Shown one piece after another: positions 33,206 through 53,739 of a DNA stretch of 64,000 bases (position 1 is its first letter; every line of letters starts with the position of its first letter). Origin of the DNA: Vicinamibacterales bacterium (GTDB lineage Bacteria; Acidobacteriota; Vicinamibacteria; Vicinamibacterales; UBA2999); contig JBFXBH010000003.1 in assembly GCA_050183355.1 (NCBI GenBank), positions 15,131 to 79,130 on the forward strand, read 5' to 3'. The notes beneath the pieces were generated by a model, which did not search any database, was not told where the DNA came from, and saw only the letters and a list, made by a program, of their open reading frames with translations. The translations under genes and the position numbers were made by a program.

Positions 33206-34945
33206 TCAGGAGGCCGGTTGCAGGCTCTCCCGAAACGCCCGCCATCCGCCGAACCGGGTGATCTCCTCCGCCCCGGCCAGGCCGGCCGCCTCGCAGATGA
33301 ACCCCTTCACCCAGCGGCCGTCGGCGAGCCGCACGTTGCCAATGCCGAGTGGCGGAGGCACGCCGTCGACGAAGCTGCCGAACGCCGCCTCGGGCACGGC
33401 CCAGACCTCGACGTCGATGCCGGGTCCGGCGAAGCCCGGCTCACGCACCAGGCCCGGCTTCGGGGGCAGCGTGTCGGCCAGCGCGAACAGCCGGTAGTCG
33501 GCAGCGGTCGCCGTCGTCTCGAGGAGCCGCGCCCCCCGCTGGGTCAACTGCCAGTTGAGCGGCTGCCCGGTGAGATGCGCGCCCACCACCGCGACGGCGA
33601 TGCAGCCGGGCGTCCGGCGCGGGTCGGCCGCCCCCTCGAATCGGGATGCCAGCGCCAACAGGCCTTCGTCCGAGAACGCCGGAGCGGCCAGCGAGATTCC
33701 GAACGGCAGGCCGTCGTCGCGCATGCCGGCGGGCACGGCCAGCACGGCGAGGTCCATCAGGTTCGCGAAGTTCGTGTAGTAGCCGAGGTTGGTGTTGAGC
33801 CGCACCGGCTCCTGCTCCACGGCCGCCCGCGTGTAGATGGTGCCGGCCGTCGGCAGCGCGAGCACGTCGATGTCGGCCCACGTGCTCCGGGTCGCCGCGA
33901 TCAGGGCCTGCAGCCGGTAGAGCGCCGTGTACGCGTCGACCGCCGAACGCTGCCGGCCTCCCAGGATGATGTCGCGCACGACGGGGTGGATGTCGGCCGC
34001 GCCCCGCTCGATGAAGTCGCCCACGGCCGCGGTGCGCTCGGCCACCCAGGGCCCCGCGTACAGCAGGCTCGCCGCCTCGCGGAACGGCGCGAAGTCGATC
34101 TCCACGACGGTCCCGCCGATGGCCTGCAGGCGCTCGATCGCGCGCGCATACAGGCCCGGCGTCAGCGGGTCGTCGAAGAATGCGAGGTCTGCCTGACGGG
34201 GCACGCCCACCCGGAACGGGCCGGACGCCCACGGCGCGGCGCCCGCGCCCGGCGCCGGCACCCGCGAGAACGGGTCATCCGCGTCCGCCCCGCGAGCCAC
34301 GCTCAGCACCAGGCCGGCGTCGGCGGTATCGCGGGTGAACACCGATACGCAATCGAGCGACCGGCACGCGGGCACGACGCCGCTCGTGCCGATCACACCC
34401 CGCGTCGGCTTCAACCCGACCAGGCTGTTGAACGCCGCGGGCACGCGTCCCGATCCGGCGGTGTCGGTCCCGAGCGAGAAGGCCACCTGCCCCCGCGCGA
34501 CGGCCACGGCGGACCCGGAGCTGGAGCCGCCCGAGATGAAGCGGTCGTCGAAGACGTTCGCGCAGGCGCCGTACGGGGACCGCACGCCCACGAGGCCCGT
34601 GGCGAACTGGTCGAGGTTGGTCTTGCCGATCACGACGGCGCCGGCCGCCGTGAGGCGTGCCACGACGCCGGCATCGCGCGCCGGCGTGTAGGCGAAGGAC
34701 GGGCACGCCGCGGTGGTGGGCAGGCCGGCGACGTCGATGTTGTCCTTCACGGCAAATGGGACGCCCGCCAGCGGCAGCGACAGGTCGATACCCGACGCCC
34801 GCCGCACGGCCGCAGCGCGGTCCGCGAGCGCAATCCATACGGGCCCCTGCCCGTCGGCCTCGATGCGCGCGAACACCGCGTCGATCACCTCCGCGGGGGT
34901 GCGGGTGCCCGCGCGGTAATCGCGCAGCAGCGCCTGAATCGTCAT
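33206..34945 (-). CDS. atzF: allophanate hydrolase (amidase-signature enzyme plus AtzF-type C-terminal domain)
   Basis: Trimmed to MTIQALLRDYRAG...; ATGA overlap with the carboxylase stop. Amidase signature GGSSSGSAVAVA...GTDTAGSGRVPAA. Confidence 0.9.
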   Translation of the reverse strand: MTIQALLRDYRAGTRTPAEVIDAVFARIEADGQGPVWIALADRAAAVRRASGIDLSLPLAGVPFAVKDNIDVAGLPTTAACPSFAYTPARDAGVVARLTAAGAVVIGKTNLDQFATGLVGVRSPYGACANVFDDRFISGGSSSGSAVAVARGQVAFSLGTDTAGSGRVPAAFNSLVGLKPTRGVIGTSGVVPACRSLDCVSVFTRDTADAGLVLSVARGADADDPFSRVPAPGAGAAPWASGPFRVGVPRQADLAFFDDPLTPGLYARAIERLQAIGGTVVEIDFAPFREAASLLYAGPWVAERTAAVGDFIERGAADIHPVVRDIILGGRQRSAVDAYTALYRLQALIAATRSTWADIDVLALPTAGTIYTRAAVEQEPVRLNTNLGYYTNFANLMDLAVLAVPAGMRDDGLPFGISLAAPAFSDEGLLALASRFEGAADPRRTPGCIAVAVVGAHLTGQPLNWQLTQRGARLLETTATAADYRLFALADTLPPKPGLVREPGFAGPGIDVEVWAVPEAAFGSFVDGVPPPLGIGNVRLADGRWVKGFICEAAGLAGAEEITRFGGWRAFRESLQPAS

Positions 34946-37900
34946 GCGACCCGCACGGTGGCCAGGTTCTGCCCCGCCATGACCATCGCGCCCTTCTCGC
35001 AGTGCAGGATCTCGACGACGCCGGTCGACGGCGCCACGACGATGACCTCCATCTTCATGGCTTCGAGCACGAGCAGCTTCTGCCCGGCTTCGACCCGCTG
35101 GCCGTGCTCGACGGCCAACTGCCACACGCTCGCCGTCACCGGCGCACGGACCGCCTCGCACCCGTCAGGCACCTCCGCCTGGACGGGTGGTGCCGCATCC
35201 TCGGGCGGCTCGACGAACTCCGGCTGCCCGGCCGCCGCCCAGCGCTCGCGTTCGGCCAGGAAGGCCGCCTGCTGGTGCCGCTTGAAGGCCGCCGACTCGT
35301 CCGCGTTGGCCGCGAGGAACGCGTGGTACTCGCGCAGGCTGAACTGCCGGGGCTCGATCGAAATCTCGTACTCGCCGTGCGGAAATGCGTCGCGCATCTC
35401 CAGCAGTTCCGCCGCGCCCACCGGGAAGAACCGGATCTGGTCGAAGAAGCGCAGCAGCCACGGCGAGCCCGGCTCGAACGCCTTCGTGGTCCGCCACGTG
35501 TTCCACATCTGGACGGTGCGCCCGACGAACTGGTAGCCGCCGGGGCCTTCCATCCCGTACACGCACATGTAGGCGCCGCCGATGCCGACCGAGTTCTCGG
35601 CCGTCCACGTGCGGGCGGGGTTGTACTTGGTGGTCACGAGACGATGGCGCGGGTCGACCGGCGTGGCCACGGGCGCGCCGAGGTAGACATCGCCCAGGCC
35701 GAGCACGAGGTAGGACGCGTCGTACACGATGCGCTTCACGTCCTCCACCGAGTCGAGTCCGTTGATGCGGCGGATGAACTCGATGTTGCTCGGACACCAC
35801 GGGGCGTCCGCCCGCACGGACTGCATGTACTTCTCGATCGCCAGCAGCGTCGCCGGGTCCTCCCACGAGAGCGGCAGGTGCACCACACGCGACGGGATCG
35901 TCAGGTCGTCGAGGTCCGGCAGCCTCGTCTCGCACTCCTCGAGCGCCCGGATCAGGACCTCGCGCGGCAGCACCCGGCTGTCGTAGTGGATCTGCAGCGA
36001 CCGGATGCCGGGCGTGATGTCCACGATGCCGCGCAGCGCCTGCGCCCGCAGCAACTGCTCCAGGGCATGGATCCGGAAGCGCAGGTTCAGGTCCAGCTCG
36101 TTGGGCCCCATCTCGACCAGCAGATACCGGTCACCCGCGGCGCGGTAGACGATGGAGGCGGCCCGGTGCAGAATCGCCGGTTCCCGCGGTTCGTCCACCG
36201 GCACGGGCAACGCGCCGGTCAACGACGTGACCGCCGCGTCGAGTTCGCGCTCGAGCCGGGTGGCCTGGGCGTTGGTCAGCATGCGGAAGCGCACCTGATC
36301 GCCGGCCCGCAACTGCCCCATCTTCCAGATCTCGGCCTGGGCGATCACGGCCGGACAGACGAAGCCGCCGAGGCTGGGCCCGTCCGGACCGAGCAGGATG
36401 GGCATGTCGCCCGTGAAGTCCATGGCGCCGATGGCGTAGGCGTTGTCGTGCAGGTTGGACGGGTGCAGCCCCGCCTCACCGCCATCCTTCCGGGCCCAGA
36501 CCGGCCGCGGTCCGATGAGCCGGACGCCCGTGCGGTCGGAGTTGTAGTGGACCTTCCACGATGCCGAGAACAACGTCTCGATGTCGCCCTCGGTGAAGAA
36601 GTCCGGTGCGACGTGCGGGCCGAAGAGCACGCCGATCTCCCACTCCGCGCCGTAGGCGGGCGTGAGCGCCGCGGGCAGCACGGAGGCCGGCGCGGGCAGG
36701 CCCGCGTCGCCGCCCCAGCGCACCAGATCTCCGGCGCGCAGCACGCGGCCGGCGTGGCCGCCGAACTTGCCGAGGATGAAGGTCGACCGGCTGCCGAGAT
36801 ACTCGGGCACGTCGAGCCCGCCACGCACCGCCAGATACGCCCGAGACCCGGGGCCCCGCGCGGACCCGAGCCTGAGCACCTGCCCGGCCCTGACGGCGAC
36901 GGCCGCCCAGCGCGGCACCGGCTGCCCGTCGAGCGTCGCCTGCATGTCCGCGCCGCCGAGCGCGATCACCGTGGCGGCGTGGAAACGGAGCGTCGGCCCC
37001 ATCATCGTGCACTCGAGGCCCGCCGCCCCTTCGGGGTTGCCGACGACCCGGCTCACGAGGCGGAAGGCCAGCGTGTCCATCGGCCCGGACGGCGGCACGC
37101 CCACGTGCCAGTAGCCCGTGCGTCCCGGGTAGTCCTGCACGGTCGTCTGCATGCCGGGCTCGACGACATCGAACCCGCGCGGGTGATACGCCACCGTGGA
37201 CAGGAAGCTGGTCGGAAACCCGCCCGCGCGGAAGCCCGGTGTCCCGACGACGGTGCGCAGATAGTCGAGGTTCGTCTCGACGCCCTCGCACCGCGTCCCG
37301 GCCAGGGCGGCGGCCAGCGCGTCCACGGCGGCCTCCCGCGTGTCGGCCTTGACGATCAGCTTGGCGAGCATCGGGTCGTAGTACGGCGTGATCTCCGAGC
37401 CCGCCGAGACCCAGCCGTCCCAGCGCACGCCCGCCGGCACCCGCACCTCGGTCAGCGTGCCGGTACTCGGCCGGAAGCCGTGCGCGGCGTCCTCGGCGTA
37501 GATGCGGACCTGGATGGACGCGCCGGACGGCACGGGCCGCAGTGTCTCGATCGGCGGCAGCGTGCCGGCGCCGAGCCGCACCATCCACTCGACGAGGTCG
37601 ACGCCGGTCACTTCCTCGGTCACGCCGTGCTCCACCTGGAGCCGCGTGTTGACCTCGAGAAAGTAGAACGCCTCCCTGTCGGCGTCGTACAGGAACTCGG
37701 CGGTGCCCGCGGACCGGTAGTGCACCGCGCGGGCCAGGCGCTCGGCCGTCTCGAGCAGGCGCGCGCGCACCGCCGGCCTGAGGCCCGGGGCCGGCGTTTC
37801 CTCGATCACCTTCTGGTTGCGCCGCTGCGCGGAGCAGTCCCGCTCACCGAGCGCGATGACCTGCCCGCGGCCGTCCCCGAACAGCTGGACCTCGATGTGC

Positions 37901-38517
37901 CGCGCGCGCTCGACGTAGCGCTCCAGATACACGCCCGCCTGGCCGAAGTTCGCGGCGCCGAGCCGCGCCACCGCGGCAAAGCCGGCCGCCAGTTCGTCCG
38001 CGCTCCGGCAGACCCGCATGCCGATGCCACCGCCGCCGGCCGTGCTCTTCAGGATCACGGGATAGCCGCAGCGCTCCGCCTCGGCCAGCGCCTCCGCCTC
38101 GTCGGCGAGCAGGCCCGTGCCCGGCAGGAGCGGAGCCCCCTCCTGCAGCGCCAGCTCCCGCGCCGTGTGCTTGAGGCCGAGGGCCCGCATCTGCGCGGCC
38201 GTCGGCCCGAGGAACACCAGGCCCGCGGCTTCGCACGCCTCGACGAACCCGGCGTTCTCGCTCAGGAAGCCGTAGCCGGGGTGAATCGCCTGCGCGCCCG
38301 TGCGGCGGGCCGCCTCGAGGATTGCCTCCTGGTTCAGGTAGCTCTGCGCGGCCACGGCGGGTCCCACGCAGACGGCCTGGTCGGCCAGGGCCACGTGGGG
38401 CGCATGGCGGTCGGCGTCGGAGAAGATGGCGACCGGGGACAGGCCGAGACGCCGGAGCGTGCGGATGATGCGGCAGGCGATCGCGCCGCGGTTCGCGATG
38501 AGGACGGTCGTGAGCAC
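34942..38517 (-). CDS. urea carboxylase family enzyme (biotin carboxylase + KipA/KipI-like carboxyltransferase + biotinyl domain); could be a guanidine carboxylase
   Basis: 1191 aa. N-terminal ATP-grasp biotin carboxylase, central allophanate-hydrolase-subunit-like domains, and a C-terminal biotin attachment site LEAMKME. Confidence 0.9.
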   Translation of the reverse strand: MLTTVLIANRGAIACRIIRTLRRLGLSPVAIFSDADRHAPHVALADQAVCVGPAVAAQSYLNQEAILEAARRTGAQAIHPGYGFLSENAGFVEACEAAGLVFLGPTAAQMRALGLKHTARELALQEGAPLLPGTGLLADEAEALAEAERCGYPVILKSTAGGGGIGMRVCRSADELAAGFAAVARLGAANFGQAGVYLERYVERARHIEVQLFGDGRGQVIALGERDCSAQRRNQKVIEETPAPGLRPAVRARLLETAERLARAVHYRSAGTAEFLYDADREAFYFLEVNTRLQVEHGVTEEVTGVDLVEWMVRLGAGTLPPIETLRPVPSGASIQVRIYAEDAAHGFRPSTGTLTEVRVPAGVRWDGWVSAGSEITPYYDPMLAKLIVKADTREAAVDALAAALAGTRCEGVETNLDYLRTVVGTPGFRAGGFPTSFLSTVAYHPRGFDVVEPGMQTTVQDYPGRTGYWHVGVPPSGPMDTLAFRLVSRVVGNPEGAAGLECTMMGPTLRFHAATVIALGGADMQATLDGQPVPRWAAVAVRAGQVLRLGSARGPGSRAYLAVRGGLDVPEYLGSRSTFILGKFGGHAGRVLRAGDLVRWGGDAGLPAPASVLPAALTPAYGAEWEIGVLFGPHVAPDFFTEGDIETLFSASWKVHYNSDRTGVRLIGPRPVWARKDGGEAGLHPSNLHDNAYAIGAMDFTGDMPILLGPDGPSLGGFVCPAVIAQAEIWKMGQLRAGDQVRFRMLTNAQATRLERELDAAVTSLTGALPVPVDEPREPAILHRAASIVYRAAGDRYLLVEMGPNELDLNLRFRIHALEQLLRAQALRGIVDITPGIRSLQIHYDSRVLPREVLIRALEECETRLPDLDDLTIPSRVVHLPLSWEDPATLLAIEKYMQSVRADAPWCPSNIEFIRRINGLDSVEDVKRIVYDASYLVLGLGDVYLGAPVATPVDPRHRLVTTKYNPARTWTAENSVGIGGAYMCVYGMEGPGGYQFVGRTVQMWNTWRTTKAFEPGSPWLLRFFDQIRFFPVGAAELLEMRDAFPHGEYEISIEPRQFSLREYHAFLAANADESAAFKRHQQAAFLAERERWAAAGQPEFVEPPEDAAPPVQAEVPDGCEAVRAPVTASVWQLAVEHGQRVEAGQKLLVLEAMKMEVIVVAPSTGVVEILHCEKGAMVMAGQNLATVRVA

Positions 38518-38520
38518 GGA

Positions 38521-39162
38521 CTAGACGGGGTCCCAGATCAGGACGCGGATGGGCGTCGGGTTGTAGGCGTTGCACGGGTTGTTGAGCTGCGGGCAATTGC
38601 TGATCACGGCCAGCACGTCCATCTCCGCGCGCAGCTCGACGTACTTGCCCGGCGCGGACACGCCGTCCTCGAACGTCAGCGTCCCGTCCGGCGTGACCGG
38701 CACGTTCATGAAGAAGTTGATGTTGTGCGTCACGTCGCGCTTTTCGAAGCCGTGTCCCCAGTCGACGAGCCCCTTCACGAAGCTCTGGCGGCAGGCGTGC
38801 ATGTACCGCTTCTCGATCGCGTAGCGCACCATGTTGCTCTCGGTCGCGCAGGCGCCGCCCAGCGTGTCGTGACGGCCGCAGGTGTCCGCGACGATCGTCA
38901 GCAGCGTGTGCCCCTTGCTCGAGATCAGCTTCGTCCCCGTCGTCAGGTAGATATTGCCCTGCTCGCGGATCGTGTCCTGCGCCGAGTAGCGGTCCTCGAG
39001 GTCGTGGGCGTTGTAGAAGAGCGTGTCCGCGGCCTGGTTGCCCTCCAGGTCCAGGATCCGGACGTGCTGGCCGCGCCGGATCTCGTGGACCCACGGGTCC
39101 CCGGCCTCGACGATCGCGTCGTAGCTGGCGGTCTCGGGCGTGAGCGGGCTCTCGGTCAGCAT
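38521..39162 (-). CDS. urea-carboxylase-associated protein 2 (DUF1989; CgdB-like)
   Basis: Trimmed to [10 protein letters not shown].... The DUF1989 pattern reads ...[15 protein letters not shown]...[10 protein letters not shown]. Confidence 0.85.
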
Positions 39163-39164
39163 GG

Positions 39165-39875
39165 CTACAGGAAATACCTCTCGGTGATCGTGAAGCCGCG
39201 GCCGTTCTCGGGGCACTTCACCCGGCACGGGTCGTCCGCGGCGGGCGGCGGGACCCTGAGCACGGCCAGGTCCACGGCCTGCGGGTCGTAGGCCGGATTC
39301 GGGTCGAGCGGATGCTGGCAGGTGTTCAGCATCACCAGGACGTTCATCTCGGCCCGAAGCTGGACGCACGCGCCCGCCGTGGAGTGACCGGGCACGTAGC
39401 GCATCGCGCCGGTGTCATCCACGACGACCTTGCTGAAGAAGTTGAGCGGCGCCACCATGTCGCGCGCGGACAGCCCGTACTTCTCGAGCTCGACGATGAA
39501 GCCGTCCTGGGCGTTGCGGTGCCAGGCATTCCGCAGACGCTGATAACTGCCTTCGCCGTACTTCTGCCGGACCAGCGCGGCGTTCGAGATGCCGCTCAGC
39601 GGGTCGTGCCACCCGAGGCTGTCGTGCGTCACGGAGCAGAGAATCCGCCCCATGTCGGAATAGAGCACGTCGCCCGCCGTCAGGCGCGCGATGTGCTGCG
39701 CCTTCAGCGTGTCGGGCATGTTGTAGCGCTCGGTCGGGTTCTCCCAGTTGTAGAACATGGCCGCAACGTTGGCCCGGCCGGTCGGGTCCGTGATGCGGAG
39801 CGCCGTGCCGCGCTTGAGGACGTGCGACCAGGTCGCACCCTCCCGCACCACGTCCGTGAACAGCGTGTCCTCCAC
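39165..39875 (-). CDS. urea-carboxylase-associated protein 1 (DUF1989; CgdA-like)
   Basis: Trimmed to GTG 39875 ([17 protein letters not shown]...), downstream of the preceding gene's stop at 39908. A paralog of the adjacent DUF1989 gene. Confidence 0.8.
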
Positions 39876-39907
39876 CGGATCGATTGTGGCGCAGGCGGAC
39901 GCCGGGC

Positions 39908-40939
39908 CTACAGCAGTTTCGGATCGATACGCCACACGTTCTCCTGCCGGATGTTGGAGAGCCACACGGCGCCATGCCCCACGCGGACCGCGTCGCCGCC
40001 CAAGCCCGTCCACTGGCGGACGACCGAGTTCGTCTCCGGGTCGATCTCGGTCAACGGGATCTCGAACACGGTCACCCACACGCGTCCGGCGCCGAACGCA
40101 ATCTCTCCCCCGCCGCCGGGCACGCCCACCTGGATGTTGGTCACGAGCTTCCGCGTCTTGACGTCCACGCGCGAGACGGTGCCGTCCCCCTGGTTCAGCG
40201 TCCAGATGGCGCCGCCACCCACGGTTGTGAAACGCGGGTTCGGCCCGACCGGAATGCGGTCGGTGATCAGGTTGGTGTGCGGGTCGACCCGCACGACGAC
40301 GCTCTCCTCGGTGCTGACCACCCAGACGGCCTTGTCCTCGCCCACCACGGTGACCGACGAGCCCTTCGGCACGCCGATCTCGGCCACGACCCGGTTCGTG
40401 TCCGGGTCGATCCGCGAGAGGATCCCCTTCATGTCACTCGTGAGCCAGACGCTGTCGGCGGTCGCCGCGATGCCGCCCTCGCTCAGCGCCGGCCCGACGT
40501 GGAGCGTGGCCGTGATCTGATTGGTCTTGAGGTCGATGCGCTGGAGTGCCTTGGTGGCGGGCTTGTCCGGCTCGCCGCAGATGGGCACCCAGAGCGACTC
40601 GAACGCGGCCACGAGGCCGCTGCACGGCCGGACACCCGTGTCGACCGTCGTCACCACCGTGTTCGTCTTCGGGTCCAGCCTCGCGACCATGTTCTTCCGG
40701 CCGCTCGTCACCCAGACGGCGTCCGGCGTGATGACCTGCCAGTCGGGATTGCCCGCGACCGGAAACACCGCCACCGGCTTGATGGCGGTGATCTCCCGCT
40801 TCACGCCGGGCGTGCTGACGCCCGGCCGCGGCGGGCGCTGCGCGGCGGGCCCACCGGGGGCGGGCGTTGGAGTCTGGGCGGCCATCAGGGCGCCGGTCAG
40901 GATGACCGCGGGAATCGTCAGCAACGTCGTCGGCTTCAC
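39908..40939 (-). CDS. secreted beta-propeller protein (repeated ...RIDP.TN.V... blades)
   Basis: 343 aa with a signal peptide. At least six repeats of the type VW(V)T....V.RIDP.TN.V. A paralog of the N-terminal half of 43408..45264. Confidence 0.7.
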   Translation of the reverse strand: MKPTTLLTIPAVILTGALMAAQTPTPAPGGPAAQRPPRPGVSTPGVKREITAIKPVAVFPVAGNPDWQVITPDAVWVTSGRKNMVARLDPKTNTVVTTVDTGVRPCSGLVAAFESLWVPICGEPDKPATKALQRIDLKTNQITATLHVGPALSEGGIAATADSVWLTSDMKGILSRIDPDTNRVVAEIGVPKGSSVTVVGEDKAVWVVSTEESVVVRVDPHTNLITDRIPVGPNPRFTTVGGGAIWTLNQGDGTVSRVDVKTRKLVTNIQVGVPGGGGEIAFGAGRVWVTVFEIPLTEIDPETNSVVRQWTGLGGDAVRVGHGAVWLSNIRQENVWRIDPKLL

Positions 40940-42373: not shown

Positions 42374-42414
42374 TGCTTCCCCCTTCCGGGACCGGATGCC
42401 GCCGAGGCGACGGG

Positions 42415-43374
42415 TTAGCGCGGAACGCGCGGCGAGAGGATCACGTCCCGCAGCACGACGCGGTCGAGCTTGCCGTTCAGGCGCTGGATCGCGTCCTGCA
42501 GCTCCAGCAGCGTGCCGCGCGTGAGCTCAAGGACGTGTTCCTCGGGCTGATACACGGTGCCGCGCGGGTAGTCCACGAACGGCGTGCTGGTCTGCTCGAT
42601 GTGCGTGCCGAGGATGTGGGCCACGGGCTTGTCGGCCGTGAAGTCCACGAGCCGCTTGTGGCTGGCGGCGAAGGTGGGAAACTCCGCGTCGCCGACGTAC
42701 AGGCGGCCCGGGTAGAAGCTGTCGCCGGTCAGCAGGATGCCCGTCTGACGGTCGTAGATCGCGATGCCCGCGACGTCGTGGCCGGGGATCGGGATGATGT
42801 CGACGACCCGGCCGCCCAGATCGAACGGCACGATGTCGGTCGGCCAGGTCTTGATGCCGAACGCCTGCTGGAGGGCGTCGACCTTCGCCGGCACGAGCTG
42901 CACGTTCGGCAGCCCGGCGAAGGTCCTGTCACCCGCGACGTGGTCGCCGTGCGAATGGGAGTGCGTCACCACCAGTTGCGGTGGCGCGGTGCGCCCGTTG
43001 CGCTTCGTCCACTTCGCGATGAGATCCATCACCACGGGCGCCGTGTTCGCCTCGCCCGCGCCCGTGTCTTCGAGCAGCACCTTGTCGCGCCCGAAGATCA
43101 GGAACAGGAACGGCTTCTCGTAGTGGCTGCACCCGGACTGCCGGAGGATGAAGAAGTTCGGGTTGTACTCGTGCACCTGGAAGGCCGCCGCCTCCATGCA
43201 CTTCGGCCCGCCCGTCGACCAGCGGGACGGCAGCACGCCGGGCTCGACGAAGGCGCTCGGCGGGTGTGGGGGCATCGCCTGCGCCGCCGATCCCTGCTGG
43301 GCCCGGAGCGCGGGACGCGCGACCAGACCGACCGTGAGCACCAGCAGCAGCGACGACAGCGAACGCACCTTCAC
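42415..43374 (-). CDS. secreted MBL-fold metallo-hydrolase
   Basis: 319 aa with a signal peptide and the metal-binding motif THSHSHGDH. Confidence 0.8.
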   Translation of the reverse strand: MKVRSLSSLLLVLTVGLVARPALRAQQGSAAQAMPPHPPSAFVEPGVLPSRWSTGGPKCMEAAAFQVHEYNPNFFILRQSGCSHYEKPFLFLIFGRDKVLLEDTGAGEANTAPVVMDLIAKWTKRNGRTAPPQLVVTHSHSHGDHVAGDRTFAGLPNVQLVPAKVDALQQAFGIKTWPTDIVPFDLGGRVVDIIPIPGHDVAGIAIYDRQTGILLTGDSFYPGRLYVGDAEFPTFAASHKRLVDFTADKPVAHILGTHIEQTSTPFVDYPRGTVYQPEEHVLELTRGTLLELQDAIQRLNGKLDRVVLRDVILSPRVPR

Positions 43375-43407
43375 GCGATCCCCCTTTGGGTTTCAGTCAG
43401 ACGTTGA

Positions 43408-45264: not shown

Positions 45265-45277
45265 GTGGTCTCCTCCG

Positions 45278-46762
45278 CTACGCGATGATGTCGTGCACGA
45301 CCTCGCCGGCCGTGTCGGTCAGGCGGAAGTCACGGCTGCTGTAGTGGTACGTCAGCTTCGTGTGGTCGATGCCCAGCAGGTAGAGCATCGTGGCGTGCAG
45401 GTCGTGGATGTGGACCTTCTTGTCCACGGCCTTGAAGCCGAAGTCGTCGGTGGCGCCGTAGGACATGCCGCCCTTGATGCCGCCGCCCGCCAGCCAGATC
45501 GAGAAGCCGGTGACGTTGTGGTCGCGTCCGTTGACCACGCCCGCCACGTTCTCGTTGGCCGTCTGGATGGCCGGCGTCCGGCCGAACTCGGTCGCGCCCA
45601 CCACCAGGGTGTCCTCGAGCAGGCCGCGCCGCTTCAGGTCCTTGATCAGCGCCGCGTAGGCCTGGTCGGAGTCCTTCGCCAGCTTGACGTAGGTCATGAT
45701 GTCGTTGTGGGCGTCCCACGGGTCGCCCTTGCCGTAGTAGGTCTGGACCATGCGCACGCCCTTCTCGACCAGCCGCGCCGCCATCAGGCAGCCGAGCGCG
45801 GTGTTGCCCGGGCCGTACATCTCGAGCGTCTCCTTGCTCTCCTTGCTGACGTCGAACACGTTCGGCGCCTCGGTCTGCATCCGGTAGGCGGTCTCCATCG
45901 TCTTGATGGAGGCCTCGAGTTCCGAGTCGCGCTCGCCGAGCCGCTTCATCTCCATCTCGTTCATGTACTGGAGGAAGCCGATGTCCCGGAGCTGCGCCTC
46001 GTCCGAGGCGGACTTCAGGATGTTCGGAATCACCTTCTCGGCCTGGAACTTCTCGTCCTCGACGTACTTGTTGTGGACGAGCGTGCCCTGGTGGACGGCC
46101 GGCAGGAACGCCGAGCTCCAGAGCGGACTGCCAATCGTCAGCGGCTCGGTCGGCGTCAGCACGACGAAGCCCGGCAGGTTCTCGTTGAGCGACCCGAGCC
46201 CGTAGGAGATCCACGACCCCATCGACGGACGGCCGATGAAGTTGGACCCGGTGTTGAGCATCGTCAGCGTCGGCTCGTGGTTCGGGATGTCCGCCCACAT
46301 CGACTTGACGACGCAGATGTCGTCCGCCACCTCCCCGAGGTGCGGCCACAACTCGCTGAACTCCTGGCCGCTCTTGCCGTAGCGGTTGAACTTGAACGGC
46401 GACTTCATCAGGTTGCCGGTCTTCCGCTGCGTGAGCACCGGCCCGCCGGGGGTCGGCTGGCCGTGGTACTTGTCGAGCATCGGCTTGTGGTCGAACGTGT
46501 CGACGTGCGACACGCCGCCGTTCATCATCAGGAAGATGACGCGCTTGGCGCGCGGCTTGAAGTGCAGTTCCTTCAGCGCCGCGCCCTTGCCCAGGCTGCC
46601 CGCGCCGGAGATGCCCTTGCCCTTCGAGGCCTTGTCGGCGGCCTCGGCCGCCGCGATGGACGATCCGAGCAACTGCGAGAGCGCCACCATCCCGAAGCCA
46701 TTCCCCAGGCGGCCCAGCGCCTGGCGGCGCGTCAACGGACGAAACGTGTGATTGCAACCCAT
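45278..46762 (-). CDS. DUF1501-domain protein (sulfatase/alkaline-phosphatase superfamily), Tat-type signal
   Basis: 494 aa. N-terminal TRRQALGRLGNGFG; motifs GGVSHVDTFD.KP and the typical DUF1501 ...RDHN.... Confidence 0.85.
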   Translation of the reverse strand: MGCNHTFRPLTRRQALGRLGNGFGMVALSQLLGSSIAAAEAADKASKGKGISGAGSLGKGAALKELHFKPRAKRVIFLMMNGGVSHVDTFDHKPMLDKYHGQPTPGGPVLTQRKTGNLMKSPFKFNRYGKSGQEFSELWPHLGEVADDICVVKSMWADIPNHEPTLTMLNTGSNFIGRPSMGSWISYGLGSLNENLPGFVVLTPTEPLTIGSPLWSSAFLPAVHQGTLVHNKYVEDEKFQAEKVIPNILKSASDEAQLRDIGFLQYMNEMEMKRLGERDSELEASIKTMETAYRMQTEAPNVFDVSKESKETLEMYGPGNTALGCLMAARLVEKGVRMVQTYYGKGDPWDAHNDIMTYVKLAKDSDQAYAALIKDLKRRGLLEDTLVVGATEFGRTPAIQTANENVAGVVNGRDHNVTGFSIWLAGGGIKGGMSYGATDDFGFKAVDKKVHIHDLHATMLYLLGIDHTKLTYHYSSRDFRLTDTAGEVVHDIIA

Positions 46763-46775
46763 CGTGGTCTCCTCG

Positions 46776-49700
46776 TTACTCGATGAACAGGAACTCGTTG
46801 GAACTCACCAGCGCCCAGCAGAACGAGCGGAGCGGCGAATCCGGCAGCGGCTTCGGCGCGTCCTTGTCCGCCTTCCTGCCCGGCTCCGGCGCGGGAGCCG
46901 GCGGGAGCGCCTTCAGCGGCGACTTCTGGACGAACGCGGTCGCGAGGCTCAGCTCCTCGGCCGTCGGTACCCGCTGGAACACCACCTCGTAGGCCTTTCT
47001 GACCTGTGCTTCCGGGCTCTCCAGCGTCTTGATGGACTCGGCCAGCGCGTCCGACAGGTTCCGCACCATCGAGCTGTTCAGGAAGAACAGGCGCTGCTGC
47101 GGGACGTTGGTCGTGTAGCGCTTCTCCGTCGAGATCGTGGCGGCCGGCAGGTCGAACGTCGCGTGGAAGTCATGCGGATACATGCGGCTGACCTTCGCGT
47201 AGACGGCGCGCCGCTGCATCTTGTCGCTCAACTCCTCCGACGGCCCGCCCTGGGTCTTCATGTCGAGCTTGTCGGCGGCCTGGAGCAGCAGGTCCCACAC
47301 GCCCTCGGAGTCGATCCGCTGACGGTTGGCTCGCCAGAACAGGGTGTTGCTGGCGTCCTTCTGGATGTTCGCCGCCACCGGGGCGGTGCTCATCTGATAC
47401 GTGCGCGAGAGCAGGATGTCCTTGTGCAGCTTCTTGAAGGACATGCCGTCCTTCACGAACTTCGCCGCGAGGAAGTCGAGCAGTTCCGGATGCGTCGGCT
47501 TCTCGCCGGCCGTGCCGAAGTTGCTCGGCGAGTCGACGATGCCGCGCCCGAAGTGCCAGCGCCACACGCGGTTGACGATGACGCGCTGCGCGACCGGATG
47601 ACGGACGATCTCCTCGGCCAGTTCCAGACGGCCGCTGCCCTTCGTCAGGAGCCTGGGCTCGCCGCCATTCAGGATGGACGGGATCGCCCGCGGTGCAGGC
47701 TCCCCGAACGTGTAGGGATTGCCCCGGGTGAACACGCGCAGGTCCGAGGGATTCTCCGCTTCCGCGATGCCGTAGATGGCGGGCGGGCGCGGCATCATCT
47801 GCTTCTTGTAGTCGTCGGCATCGGCCTTCAGCTTCGTCAGGTGCATCCGGAGGTCGGCCGGCAGCCGGCGTTCGAGCGCGCCGTCGCTGAGCTTCAGCAG
47901 GCCGGGCTTGCCGCCCCGGCCGCCGAGACCCATCTCGTCGTCGGTCTCCGCGGTCGCCTCGGGCACGTCGCGCTCGAAGACGTCGCGCCACAGCAGCAGG
48001 TCCTCGCGGTCCAGGCTCTTGAGGTCGATCTGGTAGTTGTTCAGCCGGCGCTTCTTGCCGTTCGGCAGCGGGTCGAACGGTTCCTTCTCGTCCTTGATGG
48101 ACGCGAGCAGCGCCTCGTTGTCCTTCGCCAGCTTGGCGTGCTTCTCGTCGACCTCCTTCACCTTCGCGACGAACTCCTTCGCGAGGGTGCGGGCCTCGTC
48201 CTCGGATCCGCCCAGCGACACCATCTCCTGCCAGGTCTTGAGGGCGGGATAGTTGTCCGGCCGCTTCTTCAGGAACTTGACCCACCGGCCCAGGATCTCG
48301 GGGTCGGTCTTCGTGTCCTCGGCGATCGACTCGATGGAGGCCTTCCTGTCGCTGCCGAGCTTCCACGCGGCCACCATGTAGTCCTCGGCCTGCGAGAGCA
48401 GGACTTTCGCGTAGAGCGCGCCGGCCTCCTCCTGGAACTTCTTCAGCTCCTCCTGCTTCTTCTCGAGCACCTTCGACTGCTTCTCGTACTCGTCGGCCAC
48501 CGCCTTCGGCACCCGCGGGTAGGACTTGAAGTTCGAGCTGGCGAAGATGCTCGCCATGCCGTAGTAGTCGCGGGCGTAGATGGCGTCGTACTTGTGGTCG
48601 TGGCAGCGGGCGCACCCCACGGTCAGGCCGAGGAAGGCCTTGCTGGTCACGTCCACCTTGTCGTGCCATTCGTCGGCGCGCTCGATCGGGGCCGGGCTCG
48701 CCTGGAAGATCCAGATGCCGTTGCCGTTCATGCCGAGCGCCGGCAGGTGCGTGTCGCGCACCTTGTCGTCCATCAGGTCCGCGGCCAGCTGTGTCTTGAC
48801 GAACATGTCGTAGGTCATGTCGTCGTTGAACGCGCGGATGAGCCAGTCTCGATAGAGATACGCGAACGGATACTTCTCGGTGCGGTCGGGGCGGCCGCCC
48901 ACGTTGTAGTCGTCCTCGCCGTAGCGGACGACGTCCATCCAGTGGCGGGCCCACCGCTCCCCGTACTGCGGCGACGCCAGCAGCCGGTCCACGACCTTCT
49001 CCCAGGCATTGGGGCTCTTGTCGTGCTCGAACGCCTGCACGTCCGCCATCGCCGGCATCAGGCCGGTCAGGTCGTAGGTGACGCGCCGGATCAGGTCACG
49101 CCGGGTGGCGCCCGTCGTCGGCTTCATGCCCTCCTTCTCCAGGCGGGCCAGCACGAAGCGGTCGATGTCGTTGAGCGGCCACGCCGCGTCCTTCACGGCG
49201 GGAACCGGGTGGCTGGCCAGCGGCTGGACCGACCAGAGGTGCTTCTGCTCGAGGGAGTACTCCTTGCGGTTGACCGTGTCGGCCGGCCAGAAGGCACCGT
49301 CCTTGATCCACTGCACGAAGAAGGCGATCTGTTCGTCCGTCAGGCGGGTGCCGCCCTTCGGCATCCTGAGCGTGCCGCTGTGCCTGAGCGCGGCGATGAT
49401 GATGCTCTTGTCCGGGTCGCCCGGCACGACCGCGGGTCCGGTCTTGCCGCCCTTCAGCGCGTCCTCACGCGAGTCGAGCCGCAGCCCGCCGCTGACCTGG
49501 GCCGTGTGGCAGGCAAAGCACTGCTGCGCGAGCACCGGACGGATGTGCGTCTCGAAGTGTTCGCGCAGCACGGCTTCGGGCTTCCCGCCGGTGGATCCGT
49601 CCGGCCACAGGGCGCCGTCCTTCACCCAGGCGGTCAGCGCCGCGATCTTCTCGTCGGCCAGCCTGGCGCCACCGAGGGGCATCTTCACCCCTCCGGTGTG

Positions 49701-50003
49701 CGCCACGGCCGCGATCAGCAGGCTCTGTGCGGGGTCACCCGGCACGATGGCCGGGCCGGTCTTGCCGCCCTTGAGCAGGGCCTCCCGGGAGTCGAGCCGG
49801 AGACCGCCCGCGGCGGTCCCGTCGTGACAGCCGAGGCAGCTCTCCGACAGCACCGGACGGATGCTCTTCTCGAAGAACTCCGCCTGGGTCGGCGTGGGGG
49901 CCTGTTGCGCCAGGACCCCCACGCTCGTCAGCGCGATACCATGCGCCAGCAGCGCCAATGCTGCCAGCAGAACGACGCCCTTCTTCATCTTCGACTCCCC
50001 CAC
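46776..50003 (-). CDS. PSCyt (planctomycete cytochrome c) x3 + DUF1549 + DUF1553 (PSD1) protein
   Basis: 1075 aa. Three C..CH haem-like motifs (CLGCHDG, CFACHTA, then CARCHDHKYD in the DUF1549 region). The canonical partner of DUF1501. Confidence 0.85.
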   Translation of the reverse strand: MGESKMKKGVVLLAALALLAHGIALTSVGVLAQQAPTPTQAEFFEKSIRPVLSESCLGCHDGTAAGGLRLDSREALLKGGKTGPAIVPGDPAQSLLIAAVAHTGGVKMPLGGARLADEKIAALTAWVKDGALWPDGSTGGKPEAVLREHFETHIRPVLAQQCFACHTAQVSGGLRLDSREDALKGGKTGPAVVPGDPDKSIIIAALRHSGTLRMPKGGTRLTDEQIAFFVQWIKDGAFWPADTVNRKEYSLEQKHLWSVQPLASHPVPAVKDAAWPLNDIDRFVLARLEKEGMKPTTGATRRDLIRRVTYDLTGLMPAMADVQAFEHDKSPNAWEKVVDRLLASPQYGERWARHWMDVVRYGEDDYNVGGRPDRTEKYPFAYLYRDWLIRAFNDDMTYDMFVKTQLAADLMDDKVRDTHLPALGMNGNGIWIFQASPAPIERADEWHDKVDVTSKAFLGLTVGCARCHDHKYDAIYARDYYGMASIFASSNFKSYPRVPKAVADEYEKQSKVLEKKQEELKKFQEEAGALYAKVLLSQAEDYMVAAWKLGSDRKASIESIAEDTKTDPEILGRWVKFLKKRPDNYPALKTWQEMVSLGGSEDEARTLAKEFVAKVKEVDEKHAKLAKDNEALLASIKDEKEPFDPLPNGKKRRLNNYQIDLKSLDREDLLLWRDVFERDVPEATAETDDEMGLGGRGGKPGLLKLSDGALERRLPADLRMHLTKLKADADDYKKQMMPRPPAIYGIAEAENPSDLRVFTRGNPYTFGEPAPRAIPSILNGGEPRLLTKGSGRLELAEEIVRHPVAQRVIVNRVWRWHFGRGIVDSPSNFGTAGEKPTHPELLDFLAAKFVKDGMSFKKLHKDILLSRTYQMSTAPVAANIQKDASNTLFWRANRQRIDSEGVWDLLLQAADKLDMKTQGGPSEELSDKMQRRAVYAKVSRMYPHDFHATFDLPAATISTEKRYTTNVPQQRLFFLNSSMVRNLSDALAESIKTLESPEAQVRKAYEVVFQRVPTAEELSLATAFVQKSPLKALPPAPAPEPGRKADKDAPKPLPDSPLRSFCWALVSSNEFLFIE

Positions 50004-50013
50004 GGATTCGGAT

Positions 50014-53000
50014 TTAGAACTCGAAGCGAATCGCGAACTGCATCACCCGAGGCGCCGTCGTCTCCGTGAACTGGCCGAAGCTGTTCGGCGCGTTCGCGTC
50101 GAGATTCAGCCGCGTGAAGTTCACGTTGTTGAAGGCATTGAACGCCTCCGCCCGCACCTGGATCCGCGAGCCGCCACCCAGCGCGAAGGACTTCGTGAGC
50201 GCAATGTCGGTGTTGTAGAAGTCATCCAGCCGGACTGCCGCGCGGGTGCCGACTTCGCCGGGCAGCATCGGCTTCCAGTTCGCCGCCGCCGCGTTGGTCG
50301 TCGGAAAGATGGCCGGGTTGCCGCGGTCGTTGATCTGGACCTCCGCCTCGTACGGCCCCACCGGGTCGGCCAGGGTCGTGAAGGAGAAGTTCGTCGGCCA
50401 GAGGCCCGAGTAGGCCACCGCCGTCGGCAGCGCCGACCGGTAGCGGAAGATCGTCGAGAGTTGCCAGCCGCCCACCAGCCCGTCCACCAGGCCACCGGCG
50501 CCGCTCAGGAACCTGCGGCCGCGGCCGAACGGCAGTTCCACCATGACGTTGCTGTTCACGTTGTGGCGGACGTCGAAGTCGGAGTAGCCGTAGAAGGCAT
50601 CCCGATCGAACGGGTTCAGCATCAGGCCACCGGCATTGCCGCCACCCGACTCCGTGGAACCCCCGTTGTCGCGCGCGCGCGCCAGGGTGTAGTTGAAGTC
50701 GAACGACACACCCTTGCTGATGGGCTTGCGCACCGAGAGCGTCAGCCCGTTGAAGTCGCCGTAGCCCGCGTTGGTCCACATCGACATCCCCGAGCTCTGC
50801 GTCGGATACATCGTGAAGCAGCCGGTCCTGATGATGCAGTTCGGGAACTGCGCGGTCTGGATGCGGTCGATGGCGTGGATCGTGTCCGCGTCCGATCCCC
50901 CGAACTGGCCCCAGATCAGGTCGTAGTAGTTGGCCGTCGCGCTCCCGGGGAAGTAGAGATTCTTGAGTGCGGGCACCCAGTTCTCAATCCAGGGGATGTC
51001 CTGGATGAGGGCGGGGTTTGCCCGGACCTGCGCCGGGGTGACACCCGAATTCCACACGCCGCGGATCTGCTGCGCAGCCTGCTTCCACGTGGTGCCCGAC
51101 GCAGGGTCCAGCATGTTGATGGCCCACCCGCCGGCGTCGAGCTGCATCAGCTGGTCTCGCGACCAGCGGCCGACGTATCCCGCCTCGACGGTCAGGCCGC
51201 CCTTCATCTCACGCGCGATCGAGAAGTTGGCGTTGATGGAGTAGGGCGCGTGCAGCTTCGTATCGATGCCCATGTAGTTGCCGCCGATGAAGTTGACGGC
51301 CGGGGGCGTGAACGGGAAGGTGTGCGGCGGCGCGTCCGGGATGGCCGGCAGCGTGCCGTCGTAGCGGCGGCCCGTCGTGAAGTTCACCGACTGCCCGTCG
51401 AGCCTCACGATCTCCGACAGACCGAACGAGGCCGCATTGTCGAACTTCGTGACCAGGTCGCTGCCGAACCGGTCGTAGACCAGCCCCGCCCCACCGCGAA
51501 TCACGCCGTTCCTGCCGGTCAGGAAGCTCAGGAACCCGTCCTCGGGCCTGTAGGCGGCCGACACACGGGGCGCGAAGTTGTTGCGGTCCGGGCCATACCA
51601 GCTCTGCCGTCCGTTCGCAGGCCCGTTGAAGTCATACGAGAGCAGCGCGTTCTCCATCTGGTTCATCGGGATCCCCTTCGCCATGGCATCGATGCGCTGG
51701 GCGAAGAAGTCCTGCAGCGGGAACGTCGGCGCGACCTGGAGGCCGCTGGTCTCGTAGGGCACGCCGTAGTTCACATACCGCAGGCCGTAGGTCAGCGTCA
51801 GATTCGGCGTCGCGCGCCAGTTGTCCGCGAAGTAGAGCTCGTACTCGTTGGTCGCAAAGTTGCGGACGGCCGGCGTGCCGACCGGAATCGGGTTTCCGGC
51901 CTGGTCGTAGGTGTAGGTCATGCTGCCCGTCGTGATGACGCCGAGCAGATTGCCGAACGCCCGGCCCACGACCGCCGCGTCGGCGAGGCCCAGCGTGGGA
52001 ATGCCCGTCAGGTTCCGCAGGTAGCTGGTCGTGGCCCCGGTGATGTCCGAGGCCAGGCCGAGCAGTGAGCCACGGCCATAGGAGTAGCTGGGGAACGCGT
52101 TCGCGTAGTTCACACGCTCGTTGCGGATGAACCGCAGGTTGCCGCCCGTCGTGATCGAGTGCGACCCCTTCGTCCAGGTGAGGTCCTCGACGATGTTCCA
52201 CGTCGGGTTGTTGCGCTCGAAGGGACGGGTGAAGTTGGTCGGCACGTGGATCGTGTCGATGGTGAAGGACGGGTCCAGGCTGCCGGTCTGCTTCAGCCGG
52301 ATGTTGGTCAGGCCCACGTTGAGCGAATTGACCAGCTTGGCGGAGAGCACGCTCGTGTAGGCCGCCGACACGCCGTAGCTGTTGTCGAGCGCGACCGACG
52401 CCGCGTCCTGGCCCGGATACTGGGCCACGACGTTGTCCTTCTCCATGTCGGCGATCGTCGTCCGCACGGAGAGGTTGTGCTTGCTCATGCTGTCGAGCTT
52501 CACGTCCACTTTGCCCACGTAGGCACGGTTGTCGAGCGTGAAGGGCGCGTTGAAGCGATACCCGGCGAAGTTGAGGCCGCGGTCGAGGCCGGCCGCTTCG
52601 TCGTTCGCAGCGGGCAGGCCGCCGAGGAGCGCCAGCATCGCCGGGCTGGATCCCAGTCCGAGCGGGTCGATGGCCCTGATGGCGTCGGGGCCAAGCGCGT
52701 AGGTCTGCCCGTTGTTCGCACGGACCATGAGCGTGCCGGACCTGAGCGCCGCGGACGGGACGTTGCGCAGCACACTCTGCCCGCTGTTGTCCGTCCGGCG
52801 CTCGACGTTGCCGAAGAAGAACACGCGGTTCTTCACAATCGGGCCGCCGATGGACGCGCCGTACTGGTTTCGCTTCAGCTGCTCCTTCGGCAGGCTGGCG
52901 CGCTCGTTGAAGTAGCTGTTCGCCGCGAACTTCGAGTCGCGGTTGTACTCGTAGGCGGATCCGTGCAGCGTGTTGGTGCCGCTCTTCGTGATGAGCGTGA

Positions 53001-53739
53001 CCTGTCCGCCGGAGCTGCGCCCCTGGTTGGCGTTCTGCCCCGTGACCGTGACGCGGAACTCCTGCACGGAATCGAGCGGCACGGGCAGCGCGCCGTTGAA
53101 GCCGCTCTCGCGCTGCTGTCCCGTGTTCAGCCCGCCCTGTTGCCCGTTACTGGTCCCTTCCACGCCGGCCGTCTGGTTGTCGTTGATGTCGACACCGTCG
53201 AGCGTGATGTTGTTCTGGTCGCGGCGCGCACCGATGACCTCGCCGGTGGGCGTGACACCGGGCTGCAGGCTGAGCAGTTCGACGACGTTCCGGGTCAGCA
53301 GCGGCAGCTGGCGGACCTGCGTCTCGCCGAACGGGTTGCCGACGGACGCGTCGACGAAGTTGATCGGCGCGATCTTGGCCTCGACGCTCACGGTCTCCGA
53401 GAGCCCGGCCAGTCCGAGCTTCAGATCCGCCGACGCCGGCGTGTTGACCTGGAGCGTGACCTTGGCCCTGTACGGCGCAAAGCCGGAAAGTTCCGCCAGC
53501 ACCTCGTAGGTGCCCGGAGGCACCTGGAGGAACTGATAGGCACCGGACTCATCCGAGAACACGGTGCGCTCGAACGAGGTGTCGGCGTTGATCAACTGCA
53601 CCGGCACGCCGGGAAGCGCACCGCTCTGCTCGTCGATGACTTTGCCGCGCAACGACGAGGTGGCCTGGGCAAACACCGTCCCGCTGGCCACCAGGAGTGA
53701 GAGGATCGCGAACACTACCAACCGTCCATAACCGCGCAT
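50014..53739 (-). CDS. TonB-dependent receptor-like outer-membrane protein with an N-terminal carboxypeptidase-regulatory-like domain
   Basis: 1241 aa with a signal peptide. LRGKVIDEQSGALPGVPV (CarboxypepD_reg), a plug-like region, a long beta-barrel, and the C-terminal ...QFAIRFEF. Confidence 0.85.
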   Translation of the reverse strand: MRGYGRLVVFAILSLLVASGTVFAQATSSLRGKVIDEQSGALPGVPVQLINADTSFERTVFSDESGAYQFLQVPPGTYEVLAELSGFAPYRAKVTLQVNTPASADLKLGLAGLSETVSVEAKIAPINFVDASVGNPFGETQVRQLPLLTRNVVELLSLQPGVTPTGEVIGARRDQNNITLDGVDINDNQTAGVEGTSNGQQGGLNTGQQRESGFNGALPVPLDSVQEFRVTVTGQNANQGRSSGGQVTLITKSGTNTLHGSAYEYNRDSKFAANSYFNERASLPKEQLKRNQYGASIGGPIVKNRVFFFGNVERRTDNSGQSVLRNVPSAALRSGTLMVRANNGQTYALGPDAIRAIDPLGLGSSPAMLALLGGLPAANDEAAGLDRGLNFAGYRFNAPFTLDNRAYVGKVDVKLDSMSKHNLSVRTTIADMEKDNVVAQYPGQDAASVALDNSYGVSAAYTSVLSAKLVNSLNVGLTNIRLKQTGSLDPSFTIDTIHVPTNFTRPFERNNPTWNIVEDLTWTKGSHSITTGGNLRFIRNERVNYANAFPSYSYGRGSLLGLASDITGATTSYLRNLTGIPTLGLADAAVVGRAFGNLLGVITTGSMTYTYDQAGNPIPVGTPAVRNFATNEYELYFADNWRATPNLTLTYGLRYVNYGVPYETSGLQVAPTFPLQDFFAQRIDAMAKGIPMNQMENALLSYDFNGPANGRQSWYGPDRNNFAPRVSAAYRPEDGFLSFLTGRNGVIRGGAGLVYDRFGSDLVTKFDNAASFGLSEIVRLDGQSVNFTTGRRYDGTLPAIPDAPPHTFPFTPPAVNFIGGNYMGIDTKLHAPYSINANFSIAREMKGGLTVEAGYVGRWSRDQLMQLDAGGWAINMLDPASGTTWKQAAQQIRGVWNSGVTPAQVRANPALIQDIPWIENWVPALKNLYFPGSATANYYDLIWGQFGGSDADTIHAIDRIQTAQFPNCIIRTGCFTMYPTQSSGMSMWTNAGYGDFNGLTLSVRKPISKGVSFDFNYTLARARDNGGSTESGGGNAGGLMLNPFDRDAFYGYSDFDVRHNVNSNVMVELPFGRGRRFLSGAGGLVDGLVGGWQLSTIFRYRSALPTAVAYSGLWPTNFSFTTLADPVGPYEAEVQINDRGNPAIFPTTNAAAANWKPMLPGEVGTRAAVRLDDFYNTDIALTKSFALGGGSRIQVRAEAFNAFNNVNFTRLNLDANAPNSFGQFTETTAPRVMQFAIRFEF

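Follow-up and report, generated by a model that had tools for sequence, protein, structure and literature searches.

A guanidine carboxylase pathway linked to a candidate importer, an outer-membrane receptor and exported proteins in Vicinamibacterales

A string of eleven genes was analysed in a stretch of 64,000 nucleotides from the genome of a soil acidobacterium of the Vicinamibacterales (assembly GCA_050183355.1, contig JBFXBH010000003.1, positions 15,131 to 79,130), hereafter called the window. The string extends over 20.5 kb (33206-53739, minus strand). In order of reading, it codes for a receptor (gene 01), a DUF1553/DUF1501 pair (genes 02 and 03), a propeller protein with a C-terminal extension (gene 04), a hydrolase of the metallo-beta-lactamase (MBL) fold (gene 05), a sodium:solute symporter (SSS, gene 06), a second propeller (gene 07) and four cytoplasmic proteins of nitrogen metabolism (genes 08-11). 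On the evidence of the predicted proteins, a known three-enzyme guanidine pathway is joined here to a new candidate importer, a receptor and five exported proteins. The linkage of the envelope genes to the guanidine pathway is far beyond chance, as seen from gene order, co-occurrence and phylogenetic trees. It is considered somewhat more probable than all other explanations taken together that the envelope part is a front end which imports guanidine-bearing compounds and sets guanidine free in the periplasm.

The gene string and its guanidine pathway

From gene 01 to gene 11 the genes are separated by gaps of 10, 13, 13, 33, 41, 0, 32, 2 and 3 nt, and the last two overlap by 4 nt. This layout had been proposed in an earlier sequence-only reading and was reproduced exactly by the open reading frame listing and by a separate check of the coordinates; the domain content named in that reading was borne out by Pfam and NCBIfam. 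The region at 53740-54098 is, as had been noted, the sole sizeable non-coding stretch 5' of the string. Export signals were detected on genes 01-05 and 07, and none on genes 08-11. Terminator-like and sigma-70-like sites inside the string were not more frequent than in shuffled sequence. In orthologous loci the short gaps are retained and the tight packing is conserved. The G+C content is 66-67% in genes 01-03 (45278-53739), which is the minimum of the window, and 72-74% in genes 10-11 (33206-38517). This contrast suggests that the string was put together from two modules of different history.

Genes 08-11 were assigned with high confidence to the established guanidine carboxylase pathway and not to the urea pathway, based on family models and signature residues. 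Gene 10 (34942-38517) is predicted to code for a biotin-dependent guanidine carboxylase, although the name of the family model is urea carboxylase (TIGR02712, 1824.7 bits versus a cut-off of 1304), and carries the full set of biotin carboxylase, carboxyltransferase and biotin-carrier domains in a single protein. Guanidine carboxylases differ from urea carboxylases by an aspartate at the position of residue 1330 of the K. lactis enzyme, where urea enzymes have asparagine, together with an aspartate at position 1584 (PMC11410670). After alignment to structure 3VA7, Asp700 of gene 10 was found opposite K. lactis Asn1330, and Asp943 opposite Asp1584. Aspartate occupies both signature positions in 51 of 51 related acidobacterial carboxylases collected. 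The signature residues thus identify the cytoplasmic module as the guanidine carboxylase pathway specifically. Previously, the ammonia-releasing pathway had been described as being of the 'urea or guanidine-type'; the guanidine part of this description is supported by both aspartates and by the curated scores, whereas the generic scope had to be dropped.

Gene 08 (39165-39875; TIGR03425 type, 327.5 bits versus a cut-off of 206) and gene 09 (38521-39162; TIGR03424 type, 341.2 bits versus 285) were annotated as the two DUF1989 subunits of carboxyguanidine deiminase, and gene 11 (33206-34945) as allophanate hydrolase with Amidase and AH_C domains (TIGR02713, 770.9 bits versus 511). In the proposed pathway, gene 10 would carboxylate guanidine using ATP and biotin, the two-subunit enzyme of genes 08 and 09 would deiminate the carboxylated guanidine to allophanate, and gene 11 would hydrolyse allophanate to ammonia and CO2. 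Neither a guanidine riboswitch nor a member of any other Rfam family was detected in the string at the gathering threshold or at E <= 1, and none was detected in 7 related loci. A second, distant relative of the carboxyltransferase domain (39% identity) is present elsewhere in the same genome, inside an open frame of 1304 codons (G000:C56:11867-12784).

Recurrence and distribution of the linkage

Gene neighbourhoods were compared at 74 loci from species-representative genomes, which were gathered via an alignment of gene 04 homologues and onto which all 11 window proteins were mapped by tblastn. The linkage to carboxylase and DUF1989 genes recurs in this set and is not unique to the genome of the window. 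Four arrangements (A to D) were distinguished. In pattern A the whole colinear order of genes 01-11 is found, as far as the contigs reach, with 65-84% identity to the window (G011, G014, G012, L026, L027, L029, L030); the complete string is carried by about 8 Vicinamibacterales genomes. Pattern B comprises 24 Bryobacterales loci with the order SSS-propeller-deiminase-carboxylase-hydrolase, divergent from receptor-propeller; DUF1553-DUF1501 comes next in about half of them. At one pattern B locus without DUF1553/DUF1501, a regulator of the GntR/aminotransferase (MocR) type abuts the receptor-propeller operon (L065, 2254-3699). Pattern C consists of receptor-DUF1553-DUF1501-gene04(-MBL-MBL) with no guanidine genes within 10 kb. 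In pattern D the DUF1989 pair is located directly upstream of DUF1553-DUF1501-gene04-MBL. Two further loci (L052, L116) are variants with a TIGR03427 urea-carboxylase-associated ABC importer, followed by gene 04 and MBL or by MBL alone, and divergent from the deiminase genes. DUF1501 was found directly upstream of a gene of the gene 04 type in 28 of 31 loci. In one Bryobacteraceae cassette (L021/L022, 5671-16527), a GAF-ANTAR antiterminator-type regulator lies between gene 04 and the receptor gene, and a PQQ-repeat protein is encoded directly upstream of DUF1553.

The genome of the window (Vicinamibacterales, 3.3 Mb) contains one deiminase locus and two DUF1501 genes, one of them in the string. 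With only two DUF1501 genes in this genome, adjacency to guanidine genes is more telling, not less. The DUF1553/DUF1501 pair had been called abundant, which does not apply to this genome; among the genomes analysed, the families reach as many as 65 copies in one genome. Since the deiminase was present in only 1 of 251 Acidobacteriota genomes drawn evenly from the phylum, namely in that of the window, the reverse analysis was shifted to the Bryobacterales. In 151 evenly drawn genomes of this order, the deiminase was detected in 17 and the propeller family in 24. All 17 deiminase-positive genomes have the propeller family, compared to 7 of the 134 others (Fisher's exact p = 2.8e-17, a value that ignores shared ancestry). 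A DUF1553/DUF1501 cassette is located within about 20 kb of the deiminase in at least 8 of the 17 positive genomes: in 4, DUF1553/DUF1501 lies at most 13 kb away on the upstream side, and in 4 more a propeller | DUF1553-DUF1501-receptor cassette lies 0-9 kb past the hydrolase gene. Six other deiminase-positive genomes were too fragmented to place the cassette. In genomes with small repertoires of DUF1501 genes (4 in each of G348 and G353, 10 in G305), it is the closest homologue of the window DUF1501 that adjoins the guanidine genes.

In the carboxylase tree (n=46), the loci of patterns A and B fall into a clade each, and L113/L114, L118 and L052/L116 are placed among 'plain' relatives. The state of DUF1553/DUF1501 linkage changes at least 8 times on this tree. 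In the tree of DUF1501 proteins, the 36 that are associated with a cassette or with guanidine genes, including gene 03, all group in one clade (SH-aLRT 99), with 15 other top-scoring paralogues from the same genomes outside it; guanidine-linked members occur in all four sub-branches of the clade. This indicates a dedicated DUF1501 subfamily and not chance nearness of an abundant family. One contig with a DUF1553-DUF1501-gene04 cassette is labelled 'uncultured Bordetella sp.' (L042), but nests within the Bryobacterales on the DUF1501 tree and is therefore probably mis-binned. Taken together, gene order, co-occurrence and trees confirm as real and recurrent the linkage of receptor, DUF1553-DUF1501, propellers, MBL and SSS to the carboxylase pathway.

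The distribution of the cluster is patchy and resembles that of accessory genes: it is absent from G001-G004, which belong to the same genus, and from the other 250 sampled Acidobacteriota, and is found in three other genera of the family. This sparse occurrence in the genus and the phylum would be expected if the receptor/DUF1553/DUF1501/propeller cassette were a separate uptake module for an unrelated substrate, brought next to the guanidine genes by a nitrogen-starvation regulon or on a mobile island. The occurrence of cassettes on their own, the G+C gap between genes 01-03 and 10-11, which hints at a joined origin, and a candidate promoter of the sigma-54 type (see below), which suits general nitrogen control, point in the same direction. 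This explanation is nevertheless considered quite unlikely, as the linkage recurs, with differing gene orders, in four or more lineages of the carboxylase and in every one of the four sub-branches of the DUF1501 clade, and as neither the presence of the propeller family in every deiminase-positive Bryobacterales genome nor the adjacency of the nearest DUF1501 homologue in small repertoires would be expected from it.

Envelope proteins and their possible roles

Gene 06 (40940-42373) belongs to the SSS family (PF00474, TIGR00813) and is the candidate inner-membrane guanidine importer. It is followed after 0 nt by gene 07 (39908-40939), which codes, according to Pfam, for an exported propeller without the extension and is a paralogue of gene 04 (50% identity). 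The place of gene 06 in the string is the place of a TIGR03427-type ABC importer in related clusters. At propeller-only loci, an SSS gene is located directly upstream in 33 of 43 cases and DUF1989 genes are located downstream in 37 of 43. The SSS carrier and the propeller may stand in for the usual, non-orthologous ABC importer; gene 06, with the tightly coupled periplasmic propeller of gene 07, would then carry guanidine over the inner membrane.

Gene 01 (50014-53739) codes for a barrel of 1241 aa of the TonB-dependent-receptor type (OMP_b-brl_4, PF25183, 2e-135; CarboxypepD_reg, PF13620, 4.5e-17). The match to PF25183, a 22-strand outer-membrane barrel, spans residues 250-1234; a signal peptide is present, and a TonB-box-like motif, ETVSVEA, was found at residue 115. 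The Pfam Plug domain had no match in residues 100-260, and a profile comparison against the PDB returned the colicin I receptor alone, marginal at E = 0.01. For these two reasons, the term TonB-dependent-type barrel is used with reservation.

Relatives of the SSS carriers include pantothenate and vitamin carriers, and the barrel family of gene 01 includes Oar of Myxococcus, implicated in protein secretion. The envelope part could on these grounds help the pathway indirectly, by uptake of biotin or another cofactor or by protein export through the Oar-like barrel, and the carboxylase does require biotin. The similarity of gene 06 to the PanF model of NCBIfam is weak, however, with a score far below the cut-off; a biotin-related gene is not present; and the SSS gene sits exactly where the importer of the substrate itself is encoded in the related clusters. 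Such an indirect role is regarded as very improbable.

Gene 02 (46776-50003) codes for an exported protein with the Pfam domain order PSCyt1 (twice), PSCyt2 (DUF1549) and PSD1 (DUF1553), and has three CxxCH haem-c motifs at residues 56, 162 and 464. Gene 03 (45278-46762) codes for a DUF1501 protein (PF07394, 3e-134) with a twin-arginine (Tat) signal (TRRQAL at residue 11). With a gap of 13 nt, Tat on DUF1501 and CxxCH on its partner, genes 02 and 03 form the adjacent pair that a DUF1501/PSCyt-PSD1 module requires. Relatives with solved structures were not found for either protein, and only a marginal one was found for the MBL protein of gene 05.

The exported protein of gene 04 (43408-45264) starts with a YVTN/YncE-type propeller; behind it, AlphaFold models (pLDDT 82.9 and 87.3) and fold matches place an Ig-like sandwich and then an alpha/beta domain that resembles a diverged GNAT. 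The extension after the propeller comprises 270 residues, and more than 400 full-length homologues share 58-86% identity. The propeller fold resembles those of YncE, virginiamycin B lyase and BtuG. Because the fold search with the whole protein was swamped by generic propellers, the C-terminal part was modelled apart. Its last domain gave weak matches to GNAT folds (E about 0.01, TM 0.4-0.5) and no match in Pfam; a single stand-alone homologue barely passed Acetyltransf_3 (26.4 bits versus a cut-off of 25.4). A total of 747 representative homologues of this domain were obtained, many of them stand-alone proteins of about 165 residues. The stretch where the GNAT cofactor loop would sit is variable in the gene 04 alignment. 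Acetyl-CoA is not available in the periplasm, and this GNAT-like domain is exported. Of the former label 'propeller-GNAT-like fusion', the GNAT-like part is only weakly supported by the fold matches and the one Acetyltransf_3 homologue.

Gene 05 (42415-43374) codes for a secreted MBL-fold hydrolase (PF00753, 36.6 bits) with an intact HxHxDH motif (HSHGDH at residue 140). In protein P0145, an N-terminal MBL domain that is 54% identical to full-length gene 05 (E = 6e-103) precedes, in one chain, the domain found at the C-terminus of gene 04. Following the Rosetta-stone principle, this fusion argues for a joint function of the gene 04 and gene 05 products, which probably act as a complex. In six Bryobacterales loci (L023, L041, L043, L046, L052, L058) the MBL protein is a tandem two-domain fusion of about 600-650 aa, which is often accompanied there by two extra MBL genes on the opposite strand.

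In the favoured reading, the receptor of gene 01 and the exported products of genes 02-05 would form a front end that supplies guanidine to the importer of genes 06 and 07. Its likeliest mode of action would be the uptake of scarce guanidine-bearing compounds, with release of free guanidine in the periplasm. A bolder version, which is put forward as speculative, takes the products of genes 02-05 as a new periplasmic machine that breaks the C-N (or N-X) bond in substituted guanidines, supplied by the Oar-like transporter, with import of the guanidine by the SSS carrier. If cleavage were oxidative, the electrons would be handed to the haems of gene 02.

Alternatively, the exported part may serve high-affinity capture of free guanidinium only, without periplasmic chemistry. 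The receptor would pump guanidinium through the outer membrane, the propellers would bind it in the periplasm and hand it to the SSS carrier, and the DUF1553, DUF1501 and MBL proteins would assist, for instance in assembly or redox maintenance. Receptor, propeller and SSS transporter are indeed the most constant partners, whereas DUF1553/DUF1501 is missing in about half of the Bryobacterales loci and MBL in most; the propeller follows the importer genes, SSS or ABC alike, and has a fold like that of BtuG, the ligand-binding partner of a TonB-dependent transporter. On the other hand, guanidinium (59 Da) should cross porins, the catalytic metal motif of gene 05 is intact, and binding alone hardly explains the three haem motifs of gene 02. 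The Tat export of DUF1501 suggests a cofactor-bearing enzyme (PMC3542564). Capture without chemistry is judged unlikely, and release of guanidine from guanidine-bearing compounds is preferred.

The following observations weigh against this preferred reading. Cassettes of both types occur without guanidine genes nearby (L031-L039 and L119-L122). In other genomes the cassette is distant from the guanidine genes, by 0.8 Mb in G280 and by 6 Mb in G290, or lies on other contigs (G284), and in at least two deiminase-positive genomes (G284, G290) only an ABC importer is found beside the guanidine genes. In G282 (9.1 Mb), where DUF1553-DUF1501-gene04-MBL is immediately preceded by the two DUF1989 genes (L041; likewise L023, L044 and L056), no homologue of the carboxylase transferase domain was detected at E <= 1e-20, so the deiminase-like enzymes may use a substrate other than carboxyguanidine made by the carboxylase. 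The disregard of shared ancestry in the co-occurrence test and the missing Plug match of gene 01 count on the same side. Finally, to our knowledge, none of the proteins of genes 02-05 and 07 has a domain with known chemistry on guanidino compounds.

Promoter region and comparison with known systems

A candidate sigma-54 (-24/-12) promoter, CGGCGCAGCCCTTGCT, was located by alignment at 53798-53813 (minus strand), about 60 nt upstream of the start codon of gene 01. Taken singly, a sigma-54-like match in this window is not significant. The element GGC(A/G)(C/T)-N5-TTGC is, however, shared with L028, L053 and L030, where it aligns at the same place ahead of the receptor orthologue in otherwise diverged DNA, which makes four loci with the window. 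It is absent from the divergent intergenic regions of the Bryobacterales loci and is thus specific to the Vicinamibacterales version. The 11 genes are probably one nitrogen-scavenging operon driven by sigma-54, as suggested by their packing and this element. A palindrome, GTACATCAATGTGC, at 53916-53929 precedes the sigma-54-like element by about 110 bp, which is the usual distance of an activator site; the conservation of this palindrome in L028 and L053 is only loose (CATTTGTGT).

A NifA-like GAF/sigma-54 activator encoded at 56370-58025 (minus strand; Pfam, NCBIfam) was considered as a possible regulator, with weak support. In G011, the gene that comes next after that of the allophanate hydrolase codes for a homologue with 70% identity. 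As a conserved regulator of the cluster the activator was rejected, since it is found near the cluster in 2 of 4 genomes and not in G012 and G014. The gene divergent from the receptor gene (54099-56354, plus strand) codes for a DUF5916/CBM9-like protein; its position is conserved in G011 (66% identity), L030 also has a homologue, and the gene may be part of the same regulon.

The wide use of guanidine as a nitrogen source has come to light only in recent years, and the question of where it originates in nature is still open. With a front end in the envelope conserved alongside the pathway, a class of guanidine-bearing substrates from outside the cell and a new type of importer would be indicated. 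Few uncharacterised periplasmic families of Planctomycetes, Verrucomicrobia and Acidobacteria are as large as DUF1501 and PSCyt/PSD1, and the guanidine-tied subfamily gives DUF1501/DUF1553 a first testable job, by assay of guanidine release or binding. If the cleaving machine were confirmed, a DUF1501/PSCyt-PSD1 pair would for the first time have an assigned function, and a hitherto unknown route feeding environmental guanidine pools would be revealed. Since carriers are available in culture (Paludibaculum fermentans; Bryobacterales strain F-183), the proposal is testable at the bench.

In published guanidine operons, the importers are of the ABC or APC type and riboswitches are present (PMC12186494, PMC11410670, PMC12508155). 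Those of Pseudomonas syringae, Raoultella terrigena and Klebsiella michiganensis contain the carboxylase, CgdAB, allophanate hydrolase, an ABC importer and guanidine riboswitches (PMC12186494, PMC11410670). The three enzymes recur in the string of the window, where they agree in signature residues and family models and are also clustered with an importer. The string differs from these operons by a candidate promoter of the sigma-54 type in place of a riboswitch, by SSS plus propeller for the ABC importer, and by six added outer-membrane or exported proteins. A precedent for accessory enzymes that make free guanidine from a substituted guanidine, encoded within a guanidine carboxylase operon, is the extended operon of Vreelandella boliviensis with MgdH/MgdL for methylguanidine demethylation (PMC12508155). 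There, a 2-oxoglutarate dioxygenase and a lyase, both cytoplasmic, serve as accessories, whereas the additions in the window are exported or located in the outer membrane and belong to unrelated families.

The DUF1501-PSCyt/PSD1 module is conserved, with unknown function, in Planctomycetes and Verrucomicrobia (PMC3542564, PMC5615132). The same two-gene pair with Tat on DUF1501 and CxxCH on the partner is present in the window. In contrast to those modules, which occur in dozens of copies compared to two in the genome of the window, the pair of the string belongs to a defined acidobacterial subfamily with a fixed propeller partner and a receptor, and is tied to a known pathway. The linkage had been put forward as undescribed, and no paper that combines DUF1501/PSCyt-PSD1 with a guanidine operon was found in the literature searched.

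Weak matches were obtained to the propeller of PQQ catabolism (TIGR03866) and to SoxH-like MBL proteins (TIGR04558/9), with which the window shares a periplasmic YVTN propeller and an MBL protein near c-type cytochromes. Membership in these families was rejected because of scores far below the cut-offs. A PQQ dehydrogenase is absent from the window. The BtuB-BtuG system of Bacteroides likewise combines an outer-membrane transporter with a propeller of similar fold encoded together; the propellers of the window differ in being periplasmic and not lipoproteins, and in having no sequence relationship to BtuG. In yeast, DUR3, a urea transporter of the SSS family, feeds the urea amidolyase DUR1,2. 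An SSS carrier that feeds a route of biotin carboxylase and allophanate hydrolase is the feature which the window would share with this system; the substrate in yeast is urea and a deiminase is absent, whereas the carboxylase of the window carries the guanidine signature.

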